The notes: generated by a model from the sequence alone, not told the origin. Shown: positions 1-19,751, counted from the first letter of the stretch. The stretch: 22,274 bases of DNA from an uncultured bacterium (GCA_963978095.1 CAXBQP010000050.1:1-22274); one strand, 5' to 3'. Made by a program: numbers and translations.

Positions 1-369
1 GAGAGAATGATAATGGATCGGAAACTCGCGGATGAGCCGTGCCTTGGCCTGCTCGAAAGCGAGCTGGTCACCGCGGGCACGGGCGGCACGGGCCGCGAGG
101 TCCGCCGTCAGGGTGGGGGTCCCAAGCACGACCAAGGTGTCACCTCGGTGGACGGTCGCTCCCTCCTCGACCAGCACGCGTGCCACGCGCGCGGCCACAC
201 TCGGTGAGACCGAATACTCCACCACGTCGAGCGTCCCGGTCGCCTCTATCCCGCCTCGGGCGGGCTGCGTACAGCCCGCGGCGCCGACAAGCGCCGCGGC
301 GAGCGCCGCAAGAAGCGCCGCGCCCGGACGAGGAGGCAGGCGACGCACGAAACCAATCGACATCATCAT
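1..369 (-). CDS. HlyD/efflux membrane-fusion (periplasmic adaptor) lipoprotein, 5' part only; runs off the left edge
   Basis: Not in the ORF track because there is no stop in the window. Manual translation from ATG 369 (alternatives 366, 363): MMMSIGFVRRLPPRPGAALLAALAAALVGAAGCTQPARGGIEATGTLDVVEYSVSPSVAARVARVLVEEGATVHRGDTLVVLGTPTLTADLAARAARARG... It has a hydrophobic signal ending in a lipobox-like AAGC, the lipoyl-like half motif 'RVARVLVEEGATVHRGDTLVVL' and then an Ala-rich helix. Confidence 0.85.
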   Translation of the reverse strand, partial: MMMSIGFVRRLPPRPGAALLAALAAALVGAAGCTQPARGGIEATGTLDVVEYSVSPSVAARVARVLVEEGATVHRGDTLVVLGTPTLTADLAARAARARGDQLAFEQAKARLIREFPIHYHSL

Positions 370-375
370 GCTCCG

Positions 376-381
376 AGTGTA
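376..381 (-). promoter_or_regulatory. -10-like element TACACT, 6 nt upstream of ATG 369 (leaderless-type)
   Basis: The minus strand reads TACACT-cggagc-ATG and no SD-like purine run is present. Confidence 0.5.
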
Positions 382-556
382 TCGAGAAATCGTCGCGGCC
401 GCCATCGGTAAAATCCCGACACAGCGGGACGCGAACAGGGAACAGATCGGTGCGAAACGCGCTTCGTTAACTTGGAGAACGTGCCGTCGAGCTGACGTAC
501 CGCCAGTTGCCAGCTCAACTTACCACCTTCCGCCCTCGACCCTCCGAAACCCCACC

Positions 557-997
557 ATGTCCGAACCACGCACGCAAAGCTTCGAATCGCACGCTGCCAT
601 TCACCCCATGTGGCATTACGTCGCCTTTCCGATCATCGCCGTGAACTTTTTCAATGAGTTCCGGAATCTGTTCAATGCGCCGACCGCGGCCCACATCTGG
701 GACACCATCGTTGCGCTCGGCCTCGTGCTGTGGATGTTCGCGGCGCGCACGCAAACGCTCGTGGTGCAGAACCGTGTGATCCGCCTCGAAATGCGCCTCC
801 GTCTCCGTGAACTGCTCTCGCCGGAGCTCGCCGCGCGGATCCCCGAGCTCACCACCGGTCAGCTGATCGGACTGCGCTTCGCCAGTGATGCCGAACTCCC
901 GGCGTTGGTCGAACGTTGCCTCAAGGGCGAGCTGCCCACGGGCAAGGCCTGCAAGCAGGCCGTCACGAACTGGCAGGCCGACTTCCTCCGCGCATGA
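557..997 (+). CDS. DUF6526-like small membrane protein (146 aa)
   Basis: MSEPRTQSFESHAAIHPMWHYVAFPII...VQNRVIRLEMRLRL...LTTGQLIGLRFASDAELPALVERCL...VTNWQADFLRA has two hydrophobic segments followed by QnRvIRLE and LRFASD.E motifs that I recall for DUF6526. The start was trimmed from ORF 32..997, whose upstream part is the antisense of the HlyD gene. Confidence 0.8.
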   Translation: MSEPRTQSFESHAAIHPMWHYVAFPIIAVNFFNEFRNLFNAPTAAHIWDTIVALGLVLWMFAARTQTLVVQNRVIRLEMRLRLRELLSPELAARIPELTTGQLIGLRFASDAELPALVERCLKGELPTGKACKQAVTNWQADFLRA

Positions 998-1254
998 GCG
1001 ACACGGTGAGTGGTGCCGCCGACGCGGTCGTGATCACGGTTCGCAAGAACGGCTCCCTGGGGATCGTCGGGAACGTGCGGTTGCAGGACCACGACGGGCG
1101 CGAGATTCCGCGCATCAACGACAAACCCACCATCGCGCTCTGTCGGTGCGGCCATTCGGCCCGGAAGCCCTTTTGCGACGGCGCGCACAAGGCGGCGGGA
1201 TTCATCGATCCGCCGGACGCCGCCGCGGACGGCGGTGCGTCCCTCCCCGTGTAG
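994..1254 (+). CDS. CDGSH-type iron-sulfur domain protein (86 aa)
   Basis: Contains ALCRCGHSARKPFCDGAH (C-x-C-x9-CDG[S/A]H) preceded by the 'ITVRKNGSLGIVG' strand segment. Its start overlaps the upstream stop (ATGA, 994-997). Confidence 0.92.
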   Translation: MSDTVSGAADAVVITVRKNGSLGIVGNVRLQDHDGREIPRINDKPTIALCRCGHSARKPFCDGAHKAAGFIDPPDAAADGGASLPV

Positions 1255-1265
1255 CACCCACGTGG

Positions 1266-1301
1266 CGGTGCGCCCGGTGCGCCCGGTGCGGCCGGTGCGC
1301 G
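1266..1301. repeat. Tandem 9-bp repeat, 4 copies (CGGTGCGCC x2, CGGTGCGGC, CGGTGCGCG)
   Basis: Read directly in the 59-bp gap between the convergent stops at 1254 and 1314. Confidence 0.8.
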
Positions 1302-1313
1302 GCGCGGACAGGG

Positions 1314-1808
1314 TCAGCCGGCGAGCAGCTGCGCATGCCAGCTCTCGCCGGCTTTGCGTTCGAAGCGTGTGCGGTACTCGCCGGCGGTCGTGACGGTGGT
1401 ATCGAAAACATGAGACTCGGCATCCACGCCTCCCTGCCGTGCAAGCCGGACGAAGTCGTCGCGCGTCATCGAGTGGACGAGGCCGATGCTGTCCCGAAAG
1501 TGCACGAGGCCGCTCGTGAGCAACGAGGTCCCGACGACTTTTTCCAGCGCCTGCAGCGTGCGGAAGAGTCCATCGATGGAACAGCCCGACGCGCCTTCGG
1601 TACGCTGATCGACGGCCACCGCCAAGAAGCGGTCATCCCGCCACTGGCGGGCCGAGGTGAGCGGATGCCCGTGTGCCGCCCAGCTCGCGAGGAACAGATC
1701 GACGTTGTGCAGCAACTTGGGGGCGTCTTCCGCGTCGACATCGGCGGCGGCGGCGAATACCCAGAGCCGGGCGTCGTCCGGGAGCGCTTCGAAGGGAATC
1801 ACGGGCAT
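1314..1808 (-). CDS. Conserved hypothetical protein (164 aa) with W-x2-HG, SGCSID and terminal SWH motifs
   Basis: MPVIPFEALPDDARLWVFAA...FLASWAAHGHPL...RFLAVAVDQ...ASGCSIDGLFRTLQALE...HVFDTTV...AGESWHAQLL resembles a family I recall from Bacteroidota that is often labelled 'ABC transporter ATPase'. No Walker A/B motif is present. ATG 1808 was preferred over 1952. Confidence 0.8.
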   Translation of the reverse strand: MPVIPFEALPDDARLWVFAAAADVDAEDAPKLLHNVDLFLASWAAHGHPLTSARQWRDDRFLAVAVDQRTEGASGCSIDGLFRTLQALEKVVGTSLLTSGLVHFRDSIGLVHSMTRDDFVRLARQGGVDAESHVFDTTVTTAGEYRTRFERKAGESWHAQLLAG

Positions 1809-1961
1809 GGCAACAACCGCTGGGGGCGGCAGCAGGGGGAGTACAGCCACCGTGCCGTCACGGGCACAGGATGGCAGTCCGGCAAACGCGGGCCGAAGAG
1901 AAGATAACAAACACGGCTCACCTGAAGTGCTCCGCGGATTATGTAACGTCAACTCGGCCTG

Positions 1962-1988
1962 TTGTACTTTATCCCGACAGTGTATAAT
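1962..1988 (+). promoter_or_regulatory. Sigma70-type promoter: perfect TATAAT (1983-1988) with TTGTAC (1962-1967)
   Basis: A consensus -10 hexamer lies in the most AT-rich patch of the window. The -35/-10 spacing is only 15 bp, so the -35 call is weak. Confidence 0.55.
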
Positions 1989-2034
1989 AACTGGATAGTC
2001 CGAGTTTCATGCTCAACGGCGCACGACACGCCGC

Positions 2035-2068
2035 CAGCAGTCCGCGCGGCCGTGGTTGCTGTTTCCTT
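2035..2068 (+). terminator. Intrinsic terminator-like hairpin with a short U-rich tail
   Basis: CAGCAG(T)CCGCG-CGGC-CGTGGTTGCTG followed by TTTCCTT gives an 11-bp stem with two G-U pairs and one bulge. The U-tract is imperfect. Confidence 0.35.
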
Positions 2069-2200
2069 GCGCTCGCTCGACCGTCCATTTTGTAGAAGCG
2101 TGAATGACCCCGTCCGCGGCCGCGATGCGTACGCTGCGCATGCATCACCCGTGCACGAGCCCCCTGCCATTCGCTCCGACTCATCCGCGTAGAGACCAGG

Positions 2201-3046
2201 ATGCCTCCCTCGTTCATACCATGCGGTTCGCGCCTCGGGCGCCTGCCGATTTCGTTGGCCCATCGGATGGCGGCCCTGTTGATCGCCACCGCAGTGCCGG
2301 GCGCGCTCAGTGGCCAGGCCGCACCGCCTGCCCCCGCGGGTATCCCCACCGTCACGGCGACGGCTGCGGCCCCGGTCGAGCCGGTCGTCACGCCGTTCGC
2401 GAACTTCTACGTCGCGGCTGGGCAGGCGAAGTTCGACGTGACGGGCATCAACTCCCGGCTCAACATCAACAACGGCTTCTTTGCCTTGTCCGGTGACGGC
2501 TACACCACGGGGCTCGGGTTCTATATCCCGGTCGGCGGCATCATGGCCGGCCTCGAGTACGACCTGCTCGACATGGGATACGAGTCGACGCCTGCCGGAA
2601 AGACGGATGTCCTCAAGGCGAACATGCTGCAGGGTCGCGTCAGCTTCCGGCTCCTGAGCACGTGGGACGTGACCCTCCATGGCGATCTCCAACTCGGCGT
2701 CGGCACGGTCTCGGCCAAGTTCCGGGATCGCGCCGGTGGAGCGTCACTGGCACCCGCGACCAACCCGACGTGGGACGAAATCCTCCTCAAACCGGGTGCC
2801 GAAAGCGAGATGCGCGGAACCTTCTACACCGTCGCGCCGGGGATGGGGATCGACTACATCTTCTTGAAAGACGCCAAGAGCCAACGCGGCTTCACCGTCG
2901 GCGTGCAGTTCGCGACGTCACTCGCGCCGCATCGCACGGCATGGACCTACGGCGGACGTGATGTCTTTGGTGCGCCCGACGGGGCTCCGGTGAGCACGCA
3001 GGTGCGCATCACCGTCGGCTACGGCGGATTCGCGTTGGCGCACTGA
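2201..3046 (+). CDS. Secreted hypothetical protein, probable outer-membrane beta-barrel
   Basis: Signal-like segment MAALLIATAVPGALSGQ (alternative start 2267), a Pro/Ala linker and then alternating amphipathic strands (GLGFYIPV, GLEYDL, RVSFRL, GIDYIF, FTVGVQFA, RITVGYGG). Confidence 0.7.
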   Translation: MPPSFIPCGSRLGRLPISLAHRMAALLIATAVPGALSGQAAPPAPAGIPTVTATAAAPVEPVVTPFANFYVAAGQAKFDVTGINSRLNINNGFFALSGDGYTTGLGFYIPVGGIMAGLEYDLLDMGYESTPAGKTDVLKANMLQGRVSFRLLSTWDVTLHGDLQLGVGTVSAKFRDRAGGASLAPATNPTWDEILLKPGAESEMRGTFYTVAPGMGIDYIFLKDAKSQRGFTVGVQFATSLAPHRTAWTYGGRDVFGAPDGAPVSTQVRITVGYGGFALAH

Positions 3047-4211
3047 GCCGCAGCTCCTCCAGCACGCGCGCGACCCCTGAACACATCGCCGCCACACTGA
3101 ACTGGGCGCGCGCCCGCGCCGCACCACGCGCGGCCATCGCTGCGGTACTCGCCGGCGCGTCACGAAGGGCTCGGATCGCGGCCGCCAGCGCGGGCGCATC
3201 CGCCGGCGGCACCATGCGCCCCGTCTCGCCCTCGGTGATGATCTCGGGCACGCCACCGGCGCGCGTAGCGACCACCGGACGTCCGGCGAGCATCCCCTCG
3301 ACCACGACGCGCCCGAAGGGCTCGGGAAGCACCGACGCATGCACGATCACATCCGCCGCGCGCATCAGCGCGGGAACGTCGTCGCGGAATCCGAGGAAGT
3401 GCACGCGATCAGCGATGCCCAGCGCTCGTGCCTGTTCGTGCTGCGCGGCTTCGAACGCCGTTTCACCGAAGAGCGCGGTCCCCACCACGAGGGCGTGCAC
3501 CCCGGGGAGTTCGGCGAGGGCCTGCAGCAGCACCGCTTGTCCTTTCCACGGGTGGAAACGTCCGAACAGCGCCACGACGAAGGCATCCGCCGGCACGCCG
3601 AGCGCATGACGCGTCGTCCGACCGGCGTCGGACGCGAGCGCATCGAACGGCGCCGCGTCGATCCCGTTGTGCACGACCTGTACGAGCGCCCGACGCCCAC
3701 CGGCCGCCACGAACGCTTCGGCGGTCGCGTGCGAGTTGGCGATCACGGCGGCGGCCCTCAGGTTGGCCAGTTGCGCGGCGGCGGTGATGTTGGCCCGGCT
3801 GAAATGCGGTTCCGCCAGGATATCGCGCAGATGCCAGACCACGGGCCGACGTGCCAGCACCCCGGCGGCAGCCGACACCACGAATGCCTTCTGCGTGTTG
3901 GCGTAGATCAGCTCGTGTGCCCGTGCGCGTCGCGCCACCTGTCTCGCAATGCCCGCCGCATCCATCAACGCACCGACGGATGGGAGTCCGGCATCTTTGC
4001 GCACGGCGCCGAGTGCGCCGAGCGGCTCCACGTCAACCGACACGCCCTTGCCCTCGAGCGCCGTCCGGAACGGGCCGTCGGCGAGCAACACGACATCCGC
4101 GTCCGCCCCGAACGACGACGCAAGATCGAGGAGCGACAATTCGGCGCCGCCCAACACGCCGGCGTGATCGACGAACAGGATGCGGCCCGCCGAGGCGTTG
4201 GTGCCGCTCAT
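3009..4211 (-). CDS. GT4 glycosyltransferase (400 aa)
   Basis: RILFVDHAGVLGGAELSLLDL, YANTQKA, GRFHPWKGQ and EPFGRVVVE (E-x7-E). ATG 4211 overlaps the upstream stop (ATGA). The 3' end overlaps the convergent gene by 38 nt. Confidence 0.93.
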   Translation of the reverse strand: MSGTNASAGRILFVDHAGVLGGAELSLLDLASSFGADADVVLLADGPFRTALEGKGVSVDVEPLGALGAVRKDAGLPSVGALMDAAGIARQVARRARAHELIYANTQKAFVVSAAAGVLARRPVVWHLRDILAEPHFSRANITAAAQLANLRAAAVIANSHATAEAFVAAGGRRALVQVVHNGIDAAPFDALASDAGRTTRHALGVPADAFVVALFGRFHPWKGQAVLLQALAELPGVHALVVGTALFGETAFEAAQHEQARALGIADRVHFLGFRDDVPALMRAADVIVHASVLPEPFGRVVVEGMLAGRPVVATRAGGVPEIITEGETGRMVPPADAPALAAAIRALRDAPASTAAMAARGAARARAQFSVAAMCSGVARVLEELRLSAPTRIRRSRR

Positions 4212-7200
4212 CGCTGGACCGCCTCGTATACGGCGCGTACGCGTGCGGCGATGACGGGCCAATCGTAGTGCTGTCGGGCGAACTCGCGACACGCCTCCGC
4301 GTCCGGCATGAGGCGCGTGCCGGACAACGCCCCGATCACGCCGTCGGCAATCGATGCGGCGTCCGCGCCACGCAGCACCAGCGCCGGCGAGAGCGCCTCC
4401 ACTGCGGCCGGCAGGCCGCCCACGGGGGTGACAAGACACGCGGTCCCTGCGGCCAGCGACTCGGCGACGATCAAGCCGAATCCCTCGAGCGCGTGCGTCG
4501 GCACCACCGTGAGTGACGCCGCACGATACGCCGCCGGCAGATCACCGTCAGGCACGAACCCCAGCAGGCGTACATGGTCCTGCAAGCCGAGCGCCGCGAT
4601 CTGTTGACGCAACTCACCCTCGATCGGCCCTGTCCCGGCGATGAGCACGAGGATGTCGGGAATCTGCGCGCGGATCTCGAGCGTGGCGGCGATCAGGGCG
4701 TCGAGCCCCATGCGGCGCATGAGGCGGCGAACCGACAGCACGATCGGGCGATCCGCCGGCCAGCCAAGCCGCTCGCGACAGGACGCGCGCGTGTCGGTGA
4801 TGGCGTAGCGCGGCACGTCCACACCGCCGGGAATCACATGAATCTTCTCCCGCGGGATTCCGAAGTGCCGGACCAGGATGTCCGCGAAGGGGGGCGACAG
4901 CACGATGAACGCGTCCGCGCGCGCATAGACGCGACGCTCGATGCGGGTCTTGGTCCGGACCACCACGCCGGCTTGGCGTTCGACGAGCCCTTCGAGACCC
5001 CACGGCCCCTGGAAGTGCACCACCAGCGGATGGTCGGCGATGGCGTCCAGCAGCGGGGCCGTGTAGAGCGCGAAGTGCGAGACCACGACCAGCGCGGGAT
5101 CGGCGTGCAGGATCGGCTGTCCGAGACGCCGCACGGCGAGGAGTCGCGGCCCCAACTGGCGGGAGTGCGGCGCGAACGCCTGGATGATTCCGTTGGAGTC
5201 CGCACCGACGCGCGTGGTCCCCGCGACGAGTCCGTGCACTTCCACATTGACATCGGGGAGATGACGCATCAGTTCGTAGTAGACGCGATTCAATCCCCCG
5301 GGTTTCTCGGGAAACCATTCCATGCCGATCTGCAGCGTGCGGACGGGAGCCGGGCGGGCGCGCTCGGGCCGCTGCAGGAGGGCATCCATGCGCGCGTCCT
5401 CGTCGAGCGAACCGTCGAGCACCAGCCGCGCCCACACCTCGAGCACGAGCATGGTCCAGATCTGCTCGCCCCAGTCGCGCTCCCCGGTGAAATGCTCGGC
5501 CAGCACCCGTCGCACGAACTCGGGGCGCACCCAGCCACGATCGAAAAAGGTCCGATTGTCGAGTGCCGCGCGCACGTAGGGGGAGAGCTCACCGCGCAAC
5601 CAGCGTGATGCCGGCATCACGAAACCGCGCTTGCGCCGATGCACGACCGACGACGGGACGTACCGTTCGGCGACGGCCTTCAGCAGGTGTTTCGTCTGGA
5701 ATCCGCGCAGGCGCATCGCACTGGGGATCGTGGCGGCATATTCGATCAGCGCACGATCGAGCAGCGGGGAGCGCGCCTCGAGACTGTGCGCCATGGACGC
5801 ACGGTCCGATTTCGCGAGGAGGAGATCGGGCAGGTAGGTACGGAAATCCCCTTCGAGCGCGCGATCGACATCGTCCACGCCGTCGGCGGCATCCCATACG
5901 GACCGATACCACGCGTCGGGTTCCGCCCCGCCGATGGTGGAGAGAAAGGATGGCTGATACGCCTCGAGGCGGAAATCACGAAACGCGCGATTGTACACGA
6001 AGGCGTCGCTCGCGGACTCGGCCCCGGCGTTCACGAACATGCCGATCCGCCTCAGCACACCGGAGCCGGGGGTGCCCAACGCCGCCGCGAGGCCGCGCCG
6101 AAGCGCGCCGGGGACGGCCGCGCGGTAGGGCGCGGTGGCGCGCGCCAGCATCGGGCGAGTATAGCCGCCGAAGAGCTCGTCGCCCCCGTCGCCGTTCAGC
6201 GCCACCGTCATCCAGCGCCGAGCGGCCTGCGCCAGATAGTGGCTTGGCACGATCGACACGTCCGCCAGCGGCTGTCCATAGTGCCACACGATCGAGGGCA
6301 GGTCCGACACGAGCGCGGGGCGCAAGGTCTCCTCGTGCAAGCGCATGCCGAGCCTGCCGGTGACCGCACGCGCATAGCGACGTTCGTCGAACTCCGGCTC
6401 ATCGAAGCCGAGCGTGACCGCCTCGACGGCATGCCGACTCTCTTGCGAGGCGAGCGCCGCCACCAGTGAGGAGTCCACCCCACCGGACAAGAAGATCCCC
6501 ACGGGTACATCGGAGTCGAGCCGCCGCCGCACCGCGGTGCGCACGAGCGCGTCCACATGCTCGAGCACCTCCTGTTCGGACTCCGTCGTCTTCCGCGCAT
6601 ACGAGACGCTCCAGTACCGTCCGCTCCGGTAGTCCCCGCGCTCGGCGTGGAACTCCAGAAAGTGTGCCGGGGGCAGTTGCTGCACCCCGCGAAACACCGA
6701 GAGCGGCGCCGGGACGCTCTGATACACGAGGAATGCGTCGATGGCCGCCGGATCGACGTCCGGCGTCCCCGGCAAGAGGGCACTCAGGGCGTTGAGCGTC
6801 GACGCGAAGTGCATCGTCCGCCCGTCACACCGGAAGAAGAACGGCTTCTTGCCGACGCGATCGCGTGCGGCGAACAAGGTGCGGGTCGATGCATCCCAGA
6901 TGGCGAAGGCGAACATCCCGTCGAGCCGCCGCACGAGCCCCTCGCCGCCCCACCGACGATAGCCATGCAGCAGCACCTCGAAATCGGTCCCGGTGGTGAA
7001 CACACATCCGGGCTCGAGCTCGGCGCGCAGCTCGCGATGATTGTAGATCTCCCCGTTGAACACCAGCACGCGCATGCCGTCGGCGCTGACCATCGGCTGG
7101 TGGCCGGCCGCGGAGAGATCGATGATCGACAGTCGCCGCGCACCGAGGCAGGCCTGATCGCTCGTCCACACGCCCGCGTCGTCCGGACCCCGGTGCCACA

Positions 7201-7276
7201 TGAGGTCGCGAGCGGTGATCAGTCGATCACGCGCCTCGGCCGCTCCCTCCCGAACGACGCCGATGATCCCACACAT
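4208..7276 (-). CDS. asnB: Fusion of an AsnB-type glutamine-hydrolysing amidotransferase (aa 1-~625) and a GT4 glycosyltransferase (aa ~645-1022)
   Basis: The N-terminal part has MCGIIG (Ntn Cys2), HRGPD, RRLSIID, FNGEIYN, SGGVDSS, GDGGDELFGGY and RRKRGF. It continues in frame into RTLQIGMEWFPEKPGG...VRRLMRRMG...EGFGLIVAE...YDWPVIA. Confidence 0.93.
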   Translation of the reverse strand: MCGIIGVVREGAAEARDRLITARDLMWHRGPDDAGVWTSDQACLGARRLSIIDLSAAGHQPMVSADGMRVLVFNGEIYNHRELRAELEPGCVFTTGTDFEVLLHGYRRWGGEGLVRRLDGMFAFAIWDASTRTLFAARDRVGKKPFFFRCDGRTMHFASTLNALSALLPGTPDVDPAAIDAFLVYQSVPAPLSVFRGVQQLPPAHFLEFHAERGDYRSGRYWSVSYARKTTESEQEVLEHVDALVRTAVRRRLDSDVPVGIFLSGGVDSSLVAALASQESRHAVEAVTLGFDEPEFDERRYARAVTGRLGMRLHEETLRPALVSDLPSIVWHYGQPLADVSIVPSHYLAQAARRWMTVALNGDGGDELFGGYTRPMLARATAPYRAAVPGALRRGLAAALGTPGSGVLRRIGMFVNAGAESASDAFVYNRAFRDFRLEAYQPSFLSTIGGAEPDAWYRSVWDAADGVDDVDRALEGDFRTYLPDLLLAKSDRASMAHSLEARSPLLDRALIEYAATIPSAMRLRGFQTKHLLKAVAERYVPSSVVHRRKRGFVMPASRWLRGELSPYVRAALDNRTFFDRGWVRPEFVRRVLAEHFTGERDWGEQIWTMLVLEVWARLVLDGSLDEDARMDALLQRPERARPAPVRTLQIGMEWFPEKPGGLNRVYYELMRHLPDVNVEVHGLVAGTTRVGADSNGIIQAFAPHSRQLGPRLLAVRRLGQPILHADPALVVVSHFALYTAPLLDAIADHPLVVHFQGPWGLEGLVERQAGVVVRTKTRIERRVYARADAFIVLSPPFADILVRHFGIPREKIHVIPGGVDVPRYAITDTRASCRERLGWPADRPIVLSVRRLMRRMGLDALIAATLEIRAQIPDILVLIAGTGPIEGELRQQIAALGLQDHVRLLGFVPDGDLPAAYRAASLTVVPTHALEGFGLIVAESLAAGTACLVTPVGGLPAAVEALSPALVLRGADAASIADGVIGALSGTRLMPDAEACREFARQHYDWPVIAARVRAVYEAVQR

Positions 7277-8461
7277 TCAGCCGGTCCTCGTGGCGGACGC
7301 GCGCGGGCGGATGGCGGCGGCCGCCTGGGTGAACACGGCGAACTGTTCGTCGGCGATGCGGTCCCAGTCATAGCGGGCCGCGCTCGCGGTGGCGGCGGCC
7401 GACATCCGCTGACACAGGACGTGGTCATCACGCAAGCGCAGCACTTTCTCACGCAGCGCCTCGGGACCGAACGGCACCAGCCAGCCGTTCTCCTCAGGCG
7501 TCACGAGCTCGTCCGTGCCGTTGATCGCATGGGCGATGATCGGCAGACCGGCGGCCGCCGCCTCGAGCGTCACCAGCGAGAAGGCCTCGTAGCGCGAGGG
7601 AAAGACGAAGCCGTCGCACGCGGCATAGTACAACTCCGGTGTCGGCGTCGGCGGCACGAACAGCACCTGGTCGCGGGCCCCGACACGTGCCGCGTGGGCC
7701 GAGAAGCGCGCGGTATCGCCGCGGCCCAGCACGACCAGCCGCGCATCCCGCACGCCGGCGATCGCGGCCATCGCGTCGCGCACCCCCTTGCGTTCCCAAT
7801 CGCCCCCCACGAACAACGCCAGGAACTCGTCGGCGGGCAATCCCAGCTGCTGCCGCAGCGCGCGCTTGTGGCGTCCATCCTCCGCGGGCTTGAAGACGGC
7901 TCGGTCCACGCCGTTCGGCACGACCGTGATCCGATCCTCGGCAACGCCGTAGAACTCGCGCAGTTCGCGCGCCGTTCCGTGGGACACGGCGATCACCCGC
8001 TGCAGGCGTGCGGAACCATACGCGTGCCGTTCCTCGGCGACGAACCGCGCACCGGACGCCCGTTGATACAGCGCGCGCAGCCCGCGTCCCCCGCGGAGTC
8101 CGCCGAATCGGGCCACGAACGCCGCGTGGCAGAACTGGGCCGTGATGACATCGGCGTCACGCGCGGCCGCACCGATGGCGTTCGTGATGGTGGCCCCGAC
8201 GCGCACCTCGGCCGCGCGGGCCGCCCTCGCAAAGGCCCAGGTGCGCACGACCGCGGGGCGCGCCGGCACCCGCAGCTGCTCGAACCGGATCGGCGCCCCC
8301 GGGACGTCGCATTCGCTCGCGAGCACCGTGACTCCGACCCGCCGAGCCACGCGCGACACCACCTCGGCGGCCGCTCGCTCCATCCCCCCGCGGCGGTGCA
8401 CCGCGTGCGCCACAACGGCGAGCGAGAAGGGGCCCGGATCCGGGGGCGCGGCGACGGTCAT
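7277..8461 (-). CDS. GT4 glycosyltransferase (394 aa)
   Basis: GGMERAAAE, VVPNGVD, LFVGGDWERKG, FPSRYEAFSLVTLEA and YDWDRIA. Its stop abuts the asnB-fusion start with no gap. Confidence 0.93.
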   Translation of the reverse strand: MTVAAPPDPGPFSLAVVAHAVHRRGGMERAAAEVVSRVARRVGVTVLASECDVPGAPIRFEQLRVPARPAVVRTWAFARAARAAEVRVGATITNAIGAAARDADVITAQFCHAAFVARFGGLRGGRGLRALYQRASGARFVAEERHAYGSARLQRVIAVSHGTARELREFYGVAEDRITVVPNGVDRAVFKPAEDGRHKRALRQQLGLPADEFLALFVGGDWERKGVRDAMAAIAGVRDARLVVLGRGDTARFSAHAARVGARDQVLFVPPTPTPELYYAACDGFVFPSRYEAFSLVTLEAAAAGLPIIAHAINGTDELVTPEENGWLVPFGPEALREKVLRLRDDHVLCQRMSAAATASAARYDWDRIADEQFAVFTQAAAAIRPRASATRTG

Positions 8462-8577: not shown

Positions 8578-9402
8578 GTGCCTCCTCAGCCCTCCACGAT
8601 CCGCCCGTTCAACAGCCGCCTGCTCCCGGATTTCGGGGAACTCTGGCAGTACCGCGAACTGGTGTGGACCTTTGCGGCCCGGGACCTCCGGCTGCGGTAT
8701 CGGCAAACCGTCCTCGGCGTGCTCTGGGTGGTGATCCAGCCGATCATCGCCGCCGGGGTGTTCACGTTCGTGTTCGGCAAGGTCGCACAGTTGGATGACG
8801 GCGACGGCCGCTACTTCCTGCTGGCCTTTGCCGGCTACGCCGGATTCCAGGTCTTTCAGTCGACGCTCGCCAAAGCCGGGGCGTCGCTCCTGTCCAACTC
8901 GCACGTGCTGACCAAGGTGTATTTCCCGCGGCTCGTGTTGCCGCTGTCCGGGATCCTGTCGACGCTCGTCGACGTGGGCGTTGCGCTCGTGGTGTTCGGC
9001 GCGACCGCCCTGGTCAAAGGGGTCTCGGTGGGGTGGCCGGTGCTGCTCTTCCCGGTCTGGGTGCTCCTGGCGCTGGTGCTCGGGCTCGGGCTCGGATTGG
9101 TCGTCGCCGCATGGAGCGTGCGGTTCCGCGATGTGCAACACGTGCTCCCGATCGTGATGCAACTGCTCGTGTACGCGACCCCCGTGGGGTACGCGACCTC
9201 CAAAGTACCTGCCGCCTTCCGGCCGTGGCTGGCATTGAATCCGCTCAGCGGACTCATGGACGGGATTCGCTGGAGCCTGCTCGGGATGCAACCGCCGTCG
9301 GTGGGCGCGACGCTCTGGCTGGGTATCGCGAGCCTGTCGGCGACCGCCGCCGGACTCCTGGTCTTCCACCGCTTCGAGCAGGATCTGGCGGATGTCATCT
9401 GA
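8578..9402 (+). CDS. wzm: ABC-2 polysaccharide/polyol-phosphate export permease (Wzm-type)
   Basis: ELWQYRELVWTFAARDLRLRYRQTVLGVLWVVIQP, LTKVYFPR, RFRDV, YATPVGY and LNPLSGLMDGIR, with six hydrophobic segments. GTG start. Confidence 0.95.
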   Translation: MPPQPSTIRPFNSRLLPDFGELWQYRELVWTFAARDLRLRYRQTVLGVLWVVIQPIIAAGVFTFVFGKVAQLDDGDGRYFLLAFAGYAGFQVFQSTLAKAGASLLSNSHVLTKVYFPRLVLPLSGILSTLVDVGVALVVFGATALVKGVSVGWPVLLFPVWVLLALVLGLGLGLVVAAWSVRFRDVQHVLPIVMQLLVYATPVGYATSKVPAAFRPWLALNPLSGLMDGIRWSLLGMQPPSVGATLWLGIASLSATAAGLLVFHRFEQDLADVI

Positions 9403-10636
9403 CCGGATCGCGCTCCGCGCGCGCGGCATCGGCAAGCAGTACGACATCAGCGACCACGCCTCCGCGGCCACGACGTTGGCGGAAGCGATGGTGGATCGTC
9501 TCCGGGGCCGCGCGCGGCGCGACCGCAAGCTGCTGTGGGCGCTCGATGACGTGAGCTTCGATATCGAGGCGGGTTCCGCCTACGGCATCATCGGCCGCAA
9601 CGGAGCCGGCAAGAGTACGCTGCTCAAGATCCTGAGCCGCATCACACGCCCCACGCGTGGACAGGTCGAGGTGCGCGGGCGCGTGGGAAGCCTGCTCGAG
9701 GTGGGGACCGGATTCCATCCGGAGCTCACGGGACGCGAGAACATCTTTCTCAACGGGGCGATCCTCGGGATGCGCCGGCGCGAGATCGTCCGGCAGTTCG
9801 ACGCCATCGTAGCGTTCGCCGAGACCGAGGCGTTCCTCGATGTACCGGTCAAGCGCTACAGCAGCGGGATGTACGTGCGGCTGGCGTTCGCCGTCGCCGC
9901 GCATCTCGAGCCGGACATCCTGATCGTGGACGAAGTCCTCGCCGTGGGCGATGCCGCGTTCCAGAAGAAGTGCCTCGGCAAGATGGGGGATGTCACGCGG
10001 CAGGATGGCCGCACCGTGCTGCTCGTCAGTCACAACCTGGTGGCCGTGACGGGGCTCTGCACGCGCGCCATGCTGCTCGATCAGGGCCGTCTCGTGAGCG
10101 AGGGATCGGTCCAGGCGGTCGCTGCGGACTACATGCGGTCACTCGAGCAGCACGGCAGCAGCGATCTCGCCACCCGCACGGATCGCAGTGGAACGGGACG
10201 ACTGACGCTGACGAGCGTGCGCGTCACCGGACCGATGCCGCACGCGCCGGTACAGTCGGGCGCGGAGGCCATGATCTCGATCGGCTACGAGACCGCAGAC
10301 GGAAAGCCGGCGCGGAACGTCCACTTCTCCTGCGGCGTGCGCGGCATGCTCGATGAGCGGCTGTTCCATTTGTCGACCTCGAACGCCGGCGAAGACTTCG
10401 CCGAGGTACCGGCCAAGGGGGTCGTCCGGTGCCGCGTCCCCCGACTCCCGCTGCAGCCCGGGCGATACCATCTCGCGCTCTTCACGATGACGTCGCAGGA
10501 GATCACGGACTATGTCCCGCATGCGGGTGCACTCGACGTCGAGGCGGGGGACTTCTTCGGCTCGGGACGCCTTCCACCCGCGGACGAAGGGCAGCTGTTG
10601 GTCAACCACTCGTGGGAGGTCGACACCGGCGCGTGA
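9392..10636 (+). CDS. wzt: ABC exporter ATP-binding protein with C-terminal Wzt_C-type domain
   Basis: Walker A GRNGAGKST, signature YSSGMYVRLAFA, Walker B ILIVDE and H-loop VSH, followed by a ~155-aa beta-rich extension (DRSGTG...LPLQPGRY). Overlaps wzm by 11 nt. Confidence 0.95.
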   Translation: MSSDRIALRARGIGKQYDISDHASAATTLAEAMVDRLRGRARRDRKLLWALDDVSFDIEAGSAYGIIGRNGAGKSTLLKILSRITRPTRGQVEVRGRVGSLLEVGTGFHPELTGRENIFLNGAILGMRRREIVRQFDAIVAFAETEAFLDVPVKRYSSGMYVRLAFAVAAHLEPDILIVDEVLAVGDAAFQKKCLGKMGDVTRQDGRTVLLVSHNLVAVTGLCTRAMLLDQGRLVSEGSVQAVAADYMRSLEQHGSSDLATRTDRSGTGRLTLTSVRVTGPMPHAPVQSGAEAMISIGYETADGKPARNVHFSCGVRGMLDERLFHLSTSNAGEDFAEVPAKGVVRCRVPRLPLQPGRYHLALFTMTSQEITDYVPHAGALDVEAGDFFGSGRLPPADEGQLLVNHSWEVDTGA

Positions 10637-15703: not shown

Positions 15704-16402
15704 GTGCCCATCGCCCGCCGCTACCGACTCGCCGCTGGGCTCGCGCGGCTCTTCCCGGGACTGGGACGCTGGGCCGCTGCACGACGCCGATCCCGGGTCT
15801 TCGCACGGATCTTCGAGACCAATTATTGGGGCAGCCCGACCTCGGTGTCCGGCCCGGGGTCCGAGCTCGACCAGACAGCCGTGGTGCGGGACGCACTCCC
15901 CGCGCTCCTCGCCGCACACGGGGTCACGAGCATCCTCGACGCTCCGTGCGGCGATTTCCACTGGATGCAACACGTCGCACTCGGGGGCATCGGGTACACC
16001 GGCGTCGACATCGTGCCGGCTCTGATCGCGCGCAACCACGCAACCTACGGTTCCGAGGCGCGACGCTTCGCGTGCTGCGATCTGGTCGAGGGCGATCTCC
16101 CGCGCGCCGACCTGATCGTGTGCCGGGACTGTCTCGTCCACCTCTCCTACGACGAAACACGACGCGCCCTCGACAACTTCCGACGCAGTGGTGCCACCTG
16201 GCTGCTCACGACGACCTTCACGGGTGACCGGGCCAACCACGACATCGTCACCGGCGACTGGCGCCCCATCATGCTGCACAAGGCCCCGTACGGCTTCCCG
16301 ACACCGGTCGCGCTCATCGTCGAGGGATGCACCGAGTTCGAGGGGCGGTACCCCGACAAGTCACTCGCCCTCTGGCAGCTCGCGGACCTCCCGCAGTGGT
16401 GA
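15704..16402 (+). CDS. Class I SAM-dependent methyltransferase (232 aa)
   Basis: N.WG...SVSGPGS, motif I SILDAPCGDFHWM, YTGVDIV and DLIVCRDCLVHL. Confidence 0.9.
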   Translation: MPIARRYRLAAGLARLFPGLGRWAAARRRSRVFARIFETNYWGSPTSVSGPGSELDQTAVVRDALPALLAAHGVTSILDAPCGDFHWMQHVALGGIGYTGVDIVPALIARNHATYGSEARRFACCDLVEGDLPRADLIVCRDCLVHLSYDETRRALDNFRRSGATWLLTTTFTGDRANHDIVTGDWRPIMLHKAPYGFPTPVALIVEGCTEFEGRYPDKSLALWQLADLPQW

Positions 16403-17820
16403 CCCACCGGGCACCGTCGGCACCCCTCCGGGTACTCACCCTCAGCACCAGCGACGTGGCCGGGGGCGCCGAGGCGATGGCCCGCAACCTGCACCGCGCG
16501 TATCTGGCCGCAGGGACGCGTGCGGTCATGGCGGTCGGCACCAAGCAGACCCGCGACCCGTCCGTGATCGACCTCACGTCGCGCGAGCCGTTCTCGACAT
16601 GGCGAGCCGCCTGCGACACGATCGAAGGGGCGGCCCGCCCCTTGGCCGGCACGCTTCCAGGCGCGGGAGCGCTCACACGGGCTGCGCGGCGCTGGCGCCA
16701 TCCCCAGCGCGCGCGCGACCAACGCGCAGGCATCGAATCCTGGGACTTCCCGGCCTCACGGGCGATCCTCGACCTCGCGCGGGAACCGGGAACGGTCGTT
16801 CACGCCCACAATCTCCACGGCGATTGGTTCGACCTGCGCCTGCTCGCCCAACTCCGCACCATCGCGCCGGTCTTCCTCACGCTCCACGATGCCTGGCTGC
16901 TGTCCGGTCATTGTGCCCACTCGTTCGACTGCACGCGCTGGCAATCCGGCTGCGGTCAGTGCCCGGATCTCACGATCTATCCGCCCATCGCGATCGATGC
17001 GACCGCCGAGAACTGGCGCCGGAAGCGCGACATCCTCGCCGCCAGCCGGCTGCACGTGGCCGCTCCCGCGCATTGGCTCATGGACAAGGTGGATGCCTCG
17101 ATCCTTCGACCCGCGATCGCGAGTGCGCAGGTGATTGCGAACGGCGTCGATCTGGCCACCTTCTGCCCGGGCGACCGAGGGGCGGCGCGCCGGACCCTCG
17201 GCCTTCCCGCTGGCGCGGCGGTCGTGCTCGCGTCGGCACACCGACTCCGCCACAACATGTGGAAGAACCCCGCGCTACTGCGCGACGTGATCGCGCGGGC
17301 GGGCGCCGCACTCCCGCGCCGTGAGATCATTTTCGTCGCGCTGGGCGAGCGTGCCCCGACCGAGACCATCGGCGGCGTGCAGTTCGTCGCGGCCTCCTAC
17401 GAGCGGGACAGCGCACGATTGGCGCAGTGGTATCGCGCGGCGGATGTGTTCGTGCATCCTTCACGGATGGACACGCAACCGCTCGTGCTGCTGGAAGCGT
17501 TGGCCTGCGGCACCCCCGTCATCGCGACCGACGTGGGCGGCGTCGCCGAGACATTGGGCCACCCCTTCGATGCCGAATCGCTGGCCGCCTGCCGCGACGG
17601 CGCCGAGGCGCCGAGCGGGGGCGTCCTCGTCCCGGCCGGGGATGCATCGACCATGGCGCAGGTGCTGATCACGCTCCTCGAGCGTCCACCGCTCCGCGCC
17701 GCCATGAGTCGCACCGCCATCGCCGACGCACGCAAGCGGTTTGACCTCACCCAGTGCGCCGCGGCGTATCTGGAGTGGTTCGCGATGCACCCGACGGCTC
17801 CCTCCGGCGACGCGGCCTGA
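16399..17820 (+). CDS. GT4 glycosyltransferase, WcaC-like, with a four-Cys insert (473 aa)
   Basis: GTG 16399 (GTGA overlap); VLTLSTSDVAGGAE, VHAHNLHG, TLHDAWLLSGHCAHSFDCTRWQSGCGQCP and DTQPLVLLEALACGTPV. Confidence 0.9.
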   Translation: MTHRAPSAPLRVLTLSTSDVAGGAEAMARNLHRAYLAAGTRAVMAVGTKQTRDPSVIDLTSREPFSTWRAACDTIEGAARPLAGTLPGAGALTRAARRWRHPQRARDQRAGIESWDFPASRAILDLAREPGTVVHAHNLHGDWFDLRLLAQLRTIAPVFLTLHDAWLLSGHCAHSFDCTRWQSGCGQCPDLTIYPPIAIDATAENWRRKRDILAASRLHVAAPAHWLMDKVDASILRPAIASAQVIANGVDLATFCPGDRGAARRTLGLPAGAAVVLASAHRLRHNMWKNPALLRDVIARAGAALPRREIIFVALGERAPTETIGGVQFVAASYERDSARLAQWYRAADVFVHPSRMDTQPLVLLEALACGTPVIATDVGGVAETLGHPFDAESLAACRDGAEAPSGGVLVPAGDASTMAQVLITLLERPPLRAAMSRTAIADARKRFDLTQCAAAYLEWFAMHPTAPSGDAA

Positions 17821-17822
17821 CG

Positions 17823-19751
17823 ATGTGCGGAATTTCGGGACGCCTCTCCGCGGTACCACTCACCGCCGCTGATCACGCGGCCTGTGCGGCCATGTCGCAG
17901 GCGCTCGTGCATCGCGGACCGGACGGCGAGGGCGGACTCCAGGACACCCACGTCCGGCTCGACAATCGCCGCTTGAGCATCATCGACGTCGCCGGTGGCG
18001 CGCAGCCGCTGTACAACGAGGACCGATCCATCGGCGTGGTCGCCAACGGCGAGATCTACAACGCGCGCGAACTCGCCGCCGAACTCACCGCGCGTGGTCA
18101 TGTGCTGCGCACCGGCAGCGACATCGAAGTCATCGCCCACCTGTACGAAGAACTCGGTGACGACTGCGTGCATCGCCTCCGCGGGATGTTCGCCTTTGCC
18201 GTGTGGGATGCCAGGCAGCGGCGCGCGCTGATCGTGCGCGACCGCATGGGCGAAAAACCGCTCTACGTACATGAGCGCCCGGGCACCGTGACGTTCGCCT
18301 CGGAGCTCCGGGCGCTCGTGCGCTCCGGCGCGCCCTCGGGCGCGCTCGACGAGGAGGCGATCGACCACTATTTCCACTTCCTCTGGGTCCCCGAGCCGCG
18401 CACGCCGTTGGCGGATGTCCGCAAGCTGGACGCTGGCCATCGGATGGTGGTGGAAACCGCCCCCTGGCGCGTGCGCATCTCGCGCTGGTGGAATCCGGAG
18501 GATGCGCCACCACTGGAGCGCGATCCTGCCGCCACGGTGCGCACGATGTTCGAAGAAGTCGCACCGCTGGTCGTGCGGAGCGATGTGCCCGTGGGCGTCG
18601 CGCTCTCGGGAGGGCTCGACTCCAGTACCGTGGCCGCACTCGCCGCGCCACACTGCCCAGGACTCGTCGCGTTCAGTGTCGGCTACGAGGGACGCCCGCC
18701 CTGTGACGAGCGCGCGGACGCCGCGCAGTTGGCGGCGGATCTCGCGATTCCGCTGGTCGAGATCGAGTGCCGCACGGCGGACGTGGTGGAAAGCTTTCCC
18801 CACCTCTGCCGCGCCAAGGATGATCCGATCGCCGACATCTCGGGCTTCGGTTACTGGGCGCTCATGCGCACGGCGCGCGAACACGACGTGCCGGTCCTCC
18901 TGCTGGGCCAAGGGGGCGACGAGCTCTTCTGGGGCTACGGCTGGCCTCAGGAAGGGCTCCGCCAAACACTTCGCAAGCAGCAGGCGCTTGCGCGTGGCCG
19001 CTTCCCGCTCCACGAGTACGTGCGCGTCGAAGCGCCACCGCGGCTGTCCCCGTGGGGACTTCGCACGTGGTGGCAGCGCCGCTTCGGATGGGCCGACGGT
19101 CTCGCCGAACGTGCGCGCGACATGCGAAGTCCGGCCGGCCAGTTCGTCGCGTACGACATCAATCAGCATTTCCGGCAAGCGCGTGCGATGATGGCGCAGG
19201 TCTACGGTCCCGCGATGCAGCGTCCGCGCCAGCCTGCCGAATCGTGGTTCACCTTCGACCACACGCCCGATCGCGCCGATATCCGCATGACGACGCTCAT
19301 GACCGACCTCTTCCTGCGTGAGGACGGGATCGCCCAAAGCGACCGGTTGGGCATGGATGCGTCCGTGGAGGTGCGGCTTCCGCTCGTCGATTACCGGCTC
19401 GTCGAGACCGTCATCGGACTTCGCAAGGCACACCCGGACTGGCAGCAGCCGCCCAAGACATGGATGCGGGATGCCGTGCGCGGCCGTGTGCCGGACTATG
19501 TCCTGGCGCGACGCAAACGCGGATTCGAACCACCGTATGATGCGTGGCTCGGCGCACTCACGGCACGCTACGGTCCGACACTGCGGGACGGCGCCTTGGT
19601 GCAGGCGGGACTCCTGAGCGCCGAGGGCGCCGCAACGCTCGCGGCACAGACCTCATGGAATGCCACGTGGGGCTACCAGCCGTTCGCCGCGCTGGTGCTC
19701 GAGCAGTGGCTACGCGGCATGATCGACGCCGGCCTGCGCGTCCGCCCCTGA
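17823..19751 (+). CDS. asnB: AsnB-type glutamine-hydrolysing amidotransferase, stand-alone (642 aa)
   Basis: ATG 17823 gives MCGISG, with HRGPDG, RRLSIID, ANGEIYN, SGGLDSS, GQGGDELFWGY, EVRLPLVD and RRKRGF. Confidence 0.93.
   Translation: MCGISGRLSAVPLTAADHAACAAMSQALVHRGPDGEGGLQDTHVRLDNRRLSIIDVAGGAQPLYNEDRSIGVVANGEIYNARELAAELTARGHVLRTGSDIEVIAHLYEELGDDCVHRLRGMFAFAVWDARQRRALIVRDRMGEKPLYVHERPGTVTFASELRALVRSGAPSGALDEEAIDHYFHFLWVPEPRTPLADVRKLDAGHRMVVETAPWRVRISRWWNPEDAPPLERDPAATVRTMFEEVAPLVVRSDVPVGVALSGGLDSSTVAALAAPHCPGLVAFSVGYEGRPPCDERADAAQLAADLAIPLVEIECRTADVVESFPHLCRAKDDPIADISGFGYWALMRTAREHDVPVLLLGQGGDELFWGYGWPQEGLRQTLRKQQALARGRFPLHEYVRVEAPPRLSPWGLRTWWQRRFGWADGLAERARDMRSPAGQFVAYDINQHFRQARAMMAQVYGPAMQRPRQPAESWFTFDHTPDRADIRMTTLMTDLFLREDGIAQSDRLGMDASVEVRLPLVDYRLVETVIGLRKAHPDWQQPPKTWMRDAVRGRVPDYVLARRKRGFEPPYDAWLGALTARYGPTLRDGALVQAGLLSAEGAATLAAQTSWNATWGYQPFAALVLEQWLRGMIDAGLRVRP

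Follow-up and report, generated by a model that had tools for sequence, protein, structure and literature searches.

The window considered here, one entire contig of 22,274 bases (C50) from a 2.98-Mb metagenome-assembled genome (MAG) of 101 contigs and 91% completeness, belongs to a freshwater Gemmatimonadota bacterium and carries a fused gene inside a surface-sugar gene cluster. Translation of the minus strand at 4208..7276 gives a single stop-free frame of 1022 codons followed by a TGA stop, and its product, P0001, joins an asparagine synthetase-like (AsnB-like) glutamine amidotransferase to a glycosyltransferase of family 4 (GT4). P0001 is probably a genuine two-enzyme polypeptide of a surface polysaccharide pathway of the Wzm/Wzt type, in which an AsnB half resembling WbpS and WbqG would amidate the carboxylate of a sugar and would be tied to one GT4 step. 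This reading draws on the comparison of sequences, from which we infer the substrate, the order of the reactions and any kinetic or physical coupling of the halves.

Architecture and integrity of the fused protein

The first-pass annotation of the window had described one uninterrupted 1022-codon open reading frame (ORF) with a Cys2 glutaminase, a synthetase bearing SGGVDSS and GDGGDE, a linker and a complete GT4 with an E-x7-E motif, all of which are present by translation and Pfam. The limits of the whole gene were set by translation, Pfam and NCBIfam, and its parts, all on the minus strand, follow one another from the N-terminus. The class II (N-terminal nucleophile, Ntn) glutaminase domain, with Cys2 as its nucleophile, covers residues 1-190 (6707..7276), as judged from Pfam GATase_7/GATase_6 and conserved residues; GATase_7 matches residues 47-165 (1.7e-40, 138.2 bits against a cut-off of 25), and the N-terminus reads M-C-G-I-I-G, with the cysteine directly after the initiator methionine. 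The Asn_synthase domain, a PP-loop ATP pyrophosphatase, covers residues 191-620 (5417..6706) on the evidence of Pfam, invariant motifs and fold, with Asn_synthase (PF00733) matched at 241-617 (7.2e-92, 309.2 bits against a cut-off of 21), SGGVDSS at 264-270 (SGGVDS at 264-269) and NGDGGDE at 361-367, which holds G362, G364, D366 and E367. It is followed by an inter-domain linker of about 25 residues (621-645; 5342..5416), recognised from low values of the predicted local distance difference test (pLDDT), weaker conservation and comparison with split relatives; residues 621-644 read DGSLDEDARMDALLQRPERARPAP. The GT4 half consists of an N-terminal Rossmann domain (residues 646-825; 4802..5341), assigned by Pfam Glyco_transf_4 and the invariant residues G661, H734 and H754, and of a C-terminal Rossmann domain (residues 826-1022; 4211..4801), assigned by Pfam Glycos_transf_1, invariant residues and fold and containing the E-x7-E motif E931-GFGLIVA-E939. 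Both Pfam matches are above cut-off (Glyco_transf_4 at 659-821, 2.5e-20, 73.6 bits; Glycos_transf_1 at 834-1002, 1.5e-30, 106.4 bits). In GT4 enzymes, the N-terminal Rossmann domain is the usual acceptor side and the C-terminal one the usual nucleotide-sugar side.

Conservation was measured in an alignment of 110 fused homologues. Cys2 is kept in 108 of them, the remaining two rows being gaps, and the glutaminase residues R48, N74, G75, E76 and D98 and the PP-loop S264-S269, all of which align with E. coli AsnB, are invariant, as are G362, G364, D366 and E367. The functions of the glutamine-site residues (Arg, Asn-Gly-Glu, Asp) and of the PP-loop residues of P0001 are presumably those familiar from the AsnB literature. 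On the GT side, G661, H734, H754, R850, R851, R855, G857, E931, G932, G934 and E939 are invariant, E931 and E939 each being found in 110/110 rows. Mean column conservation is 0.71-0.75 in all four domains and 0.58 in the linker, whose length varies among the homologues between 29 and 114 residues and is most often 33 (62/110). Because the catalytic residues of both halves are invariant and the four domains are equally conserved, both activities are under selection and both halves look active.

The AlphaFold2 model of P0001 has a pLDDT of 92.2, falling below 50 at residues 638-642 only, and a predicted TM-score (pTM) of 0.72. Structure and sequence searches found no PDB chain that spans both halves. 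The AsnB half adopts the fold of TsnB9 (7ylz, TMt 0.86) and of E. coli AsnB (1ct9, TMt 0.83-0.85), and the GT half that of MshA (3c4q, TMt 0.75) and PimB' (3oka, TMt 0.81). When the halves were submitted as separate chains (1-620 and 645-1022), a complex prediction run without controls scored 0.02 against a mark of 0.32, a result that carries no verdict on binding.

The possibility that an assembly or sequencing artefact joined two separate genes deserves practically no weight. No support for it was found, and the window is itself a single 22-kb MAG contig; against it, contigs from three other sequencing runs, belonging to three studies, span 5330-5440 with no insertion or deletion, and the four substitutions seen across 4900-5900 in the bridging contigs are all synonymous. 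Neither a stop nor a frameshift, both of which the first-pass annotation had considered as risks at the junction, is present there. The contigs of a fourth run (X8) end at 5375 and restart at 5577, leaving the junction unbridged and the run uninformative. Furthermore, a search of a 5.8-billion-protein collection, of which the best 120 clusters were considered, returned 110 clusters of 990-1110 residues with both AsnB and GT4 Pfam domains listed and with 48-84% identity to P0001. Where source names are given, these are 'asparagine synthase (glutamine-hydrolyzing)' from Gemmatimonadota MAGs; one cluster member, 58% identical, comes from Gemmatimonadetes bacterium T265 and is named 'hypothetical protein tb265_15640'. 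In a survey of 401 sampled Gemmatimonadota genomes, including the host G000, an uninterrupted frame of 1022-1029 residues matching residues 1-1020 or more was found in nine genomes from two genera of one family: G000, G204, G286, G230, G307 and G349 in genus g1, and G362, G234 and G392 in genus g14. The denominator also counts G057, G157 and G182, with best E-values of 1.2e-121, 7.0e-113 and 6.0e-70 as against E = 0 for full-length matches, and no claim depends on these three. The bridging contigs, together with the same open frame in eight further genomes and in over 100 protein clusters, refute the artefact reading, and the concern that the fusion might be a one-off read-through has not been borne out, the fusion being fixed in many relatives.

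Origin, variants and wider distribution of the fusion

Querying the 401 genomes with the GT half identified an orthologue at E <= 1e-80 in 15 of them, nine being the AsnB fusions and the other six G077, G055, G344, G262, G395 and G294. In G077 (locus L090), AsnB (643 residues) and GT4 are separate genes, the TGA stop of the first overlapping the start codon of the second as ATGA. The same arrangement, AsnB followed by an orthologous GT4 with 54-58% identity whose start overlaps the AsnB stop, describes the split relatives G077/L090, L004 and L005, the last from a Gemmatimonadetes MAG; in L005, about 190 nt separate the overlap from the start of the GT match lying downstream. The linker of the fused protein corresponds to the C-terminal tail of the split AsnB plus the N-terminus of the split GT4. 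Because sister lineages keep the halves separate and overlapping by ATGA, the simplest history is that the fusion derived from a translationally coupled AsnB/GT4 pair through loss of the ATGA overlap. The closest AsnB and GT4 pair outside the Gemmatimonadota was seen in an Armatimonadaceae MAG (L003, 10001-12967; 54% and 46% identity), where the AsnB part is broken across three frames and represents either a pseudogene or assembly errors.

A further variant is found in G055, a congener of the host, where a protein of 787 residues (L091; G055:C53, 304-2664) has the form GT4::GT4 with the AsnB module cleanly absent. Over residues 11-382 it shares 71% identity with the product of the GT4 gene lying upstream of the fusion in the window (7277-8461), and over residues 402-787 it shares 64% identity with the GT half of P0001. 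The AsnB module behaves as a cassette, which among these relatives may be present, separate, fused or missing. Because G055 has the GT4::GT4 protein without AsnB and congeners differ in how many strong Asn_synthase genes they carry, the module is, by this comparison, accessory and not housekeeping. Two-GT4 proteins were also met elsewhere: P0171 (793 residues) has the architecture of the G055 protein, and the gene just upstream of the split AsnB in G077 (L097; G077:C7, 15282-17999) encodes 905 residues containing a pair of GT4 modules. Fusion of one GT4 to another seems common in operons of this kind.

Beyond the close relatives, a search of 1.84 billion cluster representatives, of which the best 150 were considered, placed AsnB-GT4 proteins in separate 50%-identity clusters for 11 of these representatives, namely P0075, P0113, P0121, P0123, P0126, P0129, P0130, P0131, P0139, P0156 and P0165; the assignment was made by Pfam for ten and by precomputed domains for P0075. 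P0139 comes from an Elusimicrobia MAG, and P0130, an NCBI/ENA metagenome record of 1846 residues, has the order AsnB-GT4-GT4 followed by about 480 C-terminal residues without a strong Pfam match. The more distant fusions have 32-40% identity to P0001 and other GT4 partners. In eight of them, the AsnB half is 31.5-38% identical to that of P0001 and the GT half only 29-36%, whereas the GT half of P0001 has 53-65% identity to stand-alone GT4s, one of which comes from a Bacteroidota MAG. The difference between these figures indicates that AsnB has been joined to GT4 partners of different lineages. A listing of related loci gave at least 80, mostly with stand-alone AsnB genes of other phyla, and because of this skew no frequencies were drawn from it.

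In a tree of AsnB domains (82 rows), the fused proteins fall in at least four places, with eight state changes. However, a tree in which all fused and split rows form a single clade was not rejected by the approximately unbiased (AU) test (p-AU 0.154), the grouping having been defined after the free tree was inspected. For this reason, the claim of different fusions was placed on the non-orthologous GT halves: independent origins are supported by the pairwise identities of the differing GT partners and are not proven by the AsnB tree.

The glycan locus and its known counterparts

The fused gene lies in a tightly packed operon of the order GT4 - AsnB::GT4 - GT4, which adjoins a Wzm/Wzt exporter; gene annotations in the window are based on Pfam matches. 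The upstream GT4 gene (7277..8461, minus strand) ends in a TGA that directly abuts the ATG of the fusion (TGAATG), and the downstream GT4 gene (3009..4211, minus strand; 400 residues counted from the ATG at 4211) has a start codon that overlaps the stop of the fusion (ATGA at 4208-4211). The exporter, on the plus strand, consists of a Wzm-type ABC-2 permease (8578..9402; ABC2_membrane, 3.9e-20, with a weak NCBIfam galactan_ABC_perm match) and a Wzt-type ABC ATPase with a Wzt_C domain (9392..10636; ABC_tran and Wzt_C). The window also encodes at least four further GT4 and four GT2 enzymes, a methyltransferase and a polysaccharide deacetylase. In G204 and G362, the neighbourhood additionally has Wzy_C, Wzc-like, Wza-like and Bac_transf genes. 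The Wzm/Wzt genes at 8578-10636, set beside the Wzy_C/Wzc/Wza/Bac_transf genes of the relatives' loci L093 and L096, could mean two export routes or two interleaved glycans.

A second, stand-alone AsnB-like amidotransferase (17823..19751, plus strand), which begins M-C-G and is 35% identical to the fused AsnB half, follows a GT4 gene (16327..17820, plus strand) after a gap of 2 nt; it scores 353 bits with TIGR03108 and passes TIGR01536. This GT4-then-AsnB pair (16327-19751), in the reverse order to the fusion, also occurs in G204. The presence of two amidotransferases in one glycan cluster suggests two amidated positions. Toward the edge of the contig, the window holds a DUF6526 protein (32-997, plus strand; 7.8e-33), an open-ended ORF with a Biotin_lipoyl_2 (HlyD-like) segment (1-405, minus strand) and, at 885-3046, several ORFs without a Pfam match.

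The top NCBIfam model for the AsnB half is TIGR03108 eps_aminotran_1, matched over positions 1-624 of 628 with 519.1 bits against a curated cut-off of 816.9; other fused proteins that were tested score 515-597 bits. According to PMC7468200, the eps_aminotran_1 family comprises WbpS of P. aeruginosa, WbqG of E. coli O121 and PGN_1234 of P. gingivalis, and deletion of PGN_1234 abolishes the uronamide (the sources cited by PMC number were available in part, and statements about them apply to those parts). In H. pullorum, the N-glycan that contains HexNAcAN is altered when wbpS is knocked out (PMC6025236), and the same source cites the proposal that WbpS makes UDP-GalNAcAN. The AsnB half of P0001 shares with the WbpS/WbqG type the Ntn-glutaminase and PP-loop synthetase, a length of about 620-630 residues, the end-to-end match to TIGR03108 and a position in surface-glycan clusters flanked by GT4 genes (PMC3684757, PMC7468200). 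A table in PMC3684757 gives the order GT1 - wbpS - GT1 - GT1 for exopolysaccharide (EPS) clusters of Rubrivivax, Thauera and Rhodoferax, which the gene order of the window matches. The WbpS/WbqG-type proteins described in these sources are stand-alone, whereas the AsnB half of P0001 is covalently joined to a GT4.

A characterised parallel is Cj1438 from the capsule HS:2 locus of C. jejuni NCTC 11168, in which amidation and a polymerising glycosyltransferase reside in one polypeptide, and whose glycosyltransferase accepts only the amidated glucuronate acceptor, so that amidation precedes chain extension (PMC11800379). Cj1438 and P0001 are alike in combining a carboxylate-amidating domain and a glycosyltransferase in a single chain. 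They are, however, non-homologous: Cj1438 has an N-terminal inverting GT2 and a C-terminal TupA-like ATP-grasp domain, in reversed order relative to P0001, and adds serinol or ethanolamine instead of glutamine-derived ammonia (PMC11800379). Pfam shows neither an ATP-grasp nor a GT2 domain in P0001. The first-pass annotation placed AsnB-like proteins of this kind in glycan loci, a setting that holds for the window. Its interpretation calls for two corrections: Cj1438 is an already characterised, if non-homologous, fusion of amidation with a glycosyltransferase (PMC11800379), and the architecture itself is already in public databases, in several lineages, under no other name than 'asparagine synthase'. 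No paper on an AsnB-GT4 protein was found in the literature searched, whose reach left out most subscription journals.

Comparison with enzymes of known structure places the two halves more broadly. E. coli AsnB (1ct9) and human ASNS share with P0001 the fold, the Cys nucleophile, the Gln-binding residues and the SGGxDS PP-loop, but they are only 22-24% identical to it, whereas P0001 has about 70 extra residues, is joined to a GT4 and belongs to a glycan operon, and congeners can do without it. TsnB9 (7ylz, 623 residues), the closest solved structure by sequence (1.1e-48) and by fold, has a similar length to the AsnB half; unlike P0001, it has no glycan context or fused glycosyltransferase, and its PDB title calls it a hydroxyamidotransferase. 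The GT half conforms to GT4 in having Glyco_transf_4 and Glycos_transf_1, the EX7E motif and a GT-B fold. It shares the fold (TMt 0.75-0.81), the motif and the Pfam pair with the retaining GT4s MshA, PimA/PimB', BshA and HepE, but all specific NCBIfam models score far below cut-off on it. We take TsnB9 to be part of trichostatin biosynthesis.

Proposed reaction and competing explanations

In the proposed reaction, the AsnB half, the 620 N-terminal residues, would release ammonia from glutamine at Cys2, and its PP-loop site would use ATP to adenylate a carboxylate and convert it to a primary amide. The carboxylate acted on would most likely be that at C6 of a (2-acetamido) hexuronic acid, and the product a uronamide. 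Through a flexible linker of some 25 residues, this module would be tethered to a retaining GT4, and the two steps could be connected by either of two routes. On the donor route, UDP-uronate would be converted to UDP-uronamide, which the GT4 would then transfer; on the acceptor route, a chain-terminal uronate would be amidated and the GT4 would then extend the chain, as in Cj1438. The fusion itself would have originated when a coupled asnB-like/GT4 pair lost its ATGA stop/start overlap. The 'amidate-and-transfer' enzyme proposed in the first-pass annotation is plausible on these grounds, the AsnB half being nearest the WbpS/WbqG model and the split relatives being translationally coupled, while its substrate, the order of its reactions and any interface between the halves stay at the level of proposal.

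Several observations weigh against this reading. Judged by the standard of the curators, the AsnB half falls outside the WbpS/WbqG family, and the link of TIGR03108 with the XrtA exosortase/PEP-CTERM system, taken from the model name, is not seen in the host, since no exosortase (PF09721) match was obtained in the 91%-complete genome; because the score is below the cut-off and the exosortase is missing, the AsnB half cannot be filed in the TIGR03108 family. The NCBIfam matches of the GT half all lie far below cut-off and indicate neither donor nor acceptor. No UDP-sugar dehydrogenase or other carboxylated-sugar gene was found in the window or in the 20-40 kb around the gene in G204, G362 and G077; a tandem UDP-sugar dehydrogenase pair, whose presence speaks for the reading, lies on another contig of the host and is found in 5/5 fusion-bearing genomes checked, the comparison being among fusion-bearing genomes only. 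GT4 orthologues with 46-52% identity occur with no AsnB match in their flanks, over 1.5 kb in G344, G262, G395 and G294 (48-52% identity) and over about 10 kb in L002 and L006. Finally, the linker is weakly conserved and variable in length, and the pTM is only 0.72 despite a pLDDT of 92, both of which agree better with a loose, flexible tether than with a fixed channel.

In a variant of the preferred reading, the AsnB half of an otherwise identical bifunctional enzyme would act on a carboxylate other than the C6 of a hexuronic acid, candidates being a ketal-linked pyruvate, a lactyl ether, a nonulosonic or ulosonic acid, or an amino acid attached to the glycan or to a precursor. This is rather unlikely, although it would account for the low TIGR03108 score and for the lack of a uronic-acid-forming gene in the cluster; moreover, the nearest solved relative, TsnB9, acts on a non-sugar carboxylate, indicating a plastic family, and the methyltransferase and deacetylase genes point to a heavily decorated glycan. 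On the other hand, TIGR03108 is still the top model and is matched over its full length, the only glycan-locus AsnB-type enzymes with genetic evidence in the sources consulted make uronamides (PMC7468200, PMC6025236), and the Pfam scan of the window showed no pyruvyl-transferase or nonulosonate-synthesis gene. It is also conceivable, but improbable, that the tether is neutral, with both halves active at unrelated steps without channelling or a checkpoint and the ATGA loss simply fixed in one clade. Such a history would agree with the occurrence of split, fused and AsnB-less forms among close relatives and with the pTM and the variable, weakly conserved linker. However, the split forms keep the AsnB-then-GT4 order with the stop/start overlap and AsnB-GT4 fusions recur with other GT4 partners, which argues for a functional link beyond chance adjacency, and Cj1438 shows that a mechanistic link is possible, its glycosyltransferase accepting only the amidated acceptor (PMC11800379).

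That the AsnB half is simply the asparagine synthetase of the cell, its position in a glycan operon being incidental, is very improbable. The half does pass the generic TIGR01536 asn_synth_AEB model (443.5 against a cut-off of 267.1), public annotations are named accordingly, and the genome has an asparaginyl-tRNA synthetase while no AsnA was found. Nevertheless, the AsnB half is fused to and co-transcribed with glycosyltransferases, and it is missing from the congeners G055 and G085, which are 98-100% complete. The Asn_synthase copy common to all congeners checked is instead a third, divergent gene, G000:C23:12471-13514, and the presence of GatB makes tRNA-dependent asparagine formation possible. 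In addition, Glu348 of E. coli AsnB, which we assume to have a functional role there, aligns with Asp363 of P0001. The divergent gene at G000:C23:12471-13514 (95 bits, in a frame of 615 residues) has counterparts in G085, G230 and G055, and may be the housekeeping enzyme or something else.

Within the preferred reading of P0001 as an amidating glycan enzyme tied to one GT4 step, a more specific picture can be drawn, which we offer tentatively and with some doubt: an amidate-then-extend machine with a checkpoint, assembled from components not related to those of Cj1438, in which the tethered GT4 would take only the amidated species, so that the amide would occupy one defined position of the repeat unit. 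If this were true, the terminal uronate of a lipid-linked chain would be amidated, or UDP-uronamide would be passed directly to the active site next to it. On this view, the series of fused, ATGA-split and AsnB-less GT4::GT4 forms would represent a cassette that switches the surface glycan between anionic and neutral, and the recurrence of AsnB-GT fusions with varied GT partners would point to repeated evolution of the coupling.

AsnB and GT4 are well-known kinds of enzyme, and Cj1438 already provides the logic of linking amidation with glycosyl transfer; the AsnB-GT4 architecture is present in public databases and uncharacterised. The name 'asparagine synthase (glutamine-hydrolyzing)' carried by more than 100 database proteins gives no hint of the glycosyltransferase and probably points to the wrong pathway. 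The stage at which AsnB-type enzymes amidate sugar acids is unsettled between the nucleotide sugar, a lipid-linked intermediate and the polymer, and amidation at the nucleotide-sugar stage is described as likely or proposed and not as demonstrated in the available parts of PMC2615507 and PMC6025236. The covalent AsnB-GT4 protein names the partner step of the amidation and offers a single recombinant target for this question, with its naturally split and AsnB-less forms as built-in controls.

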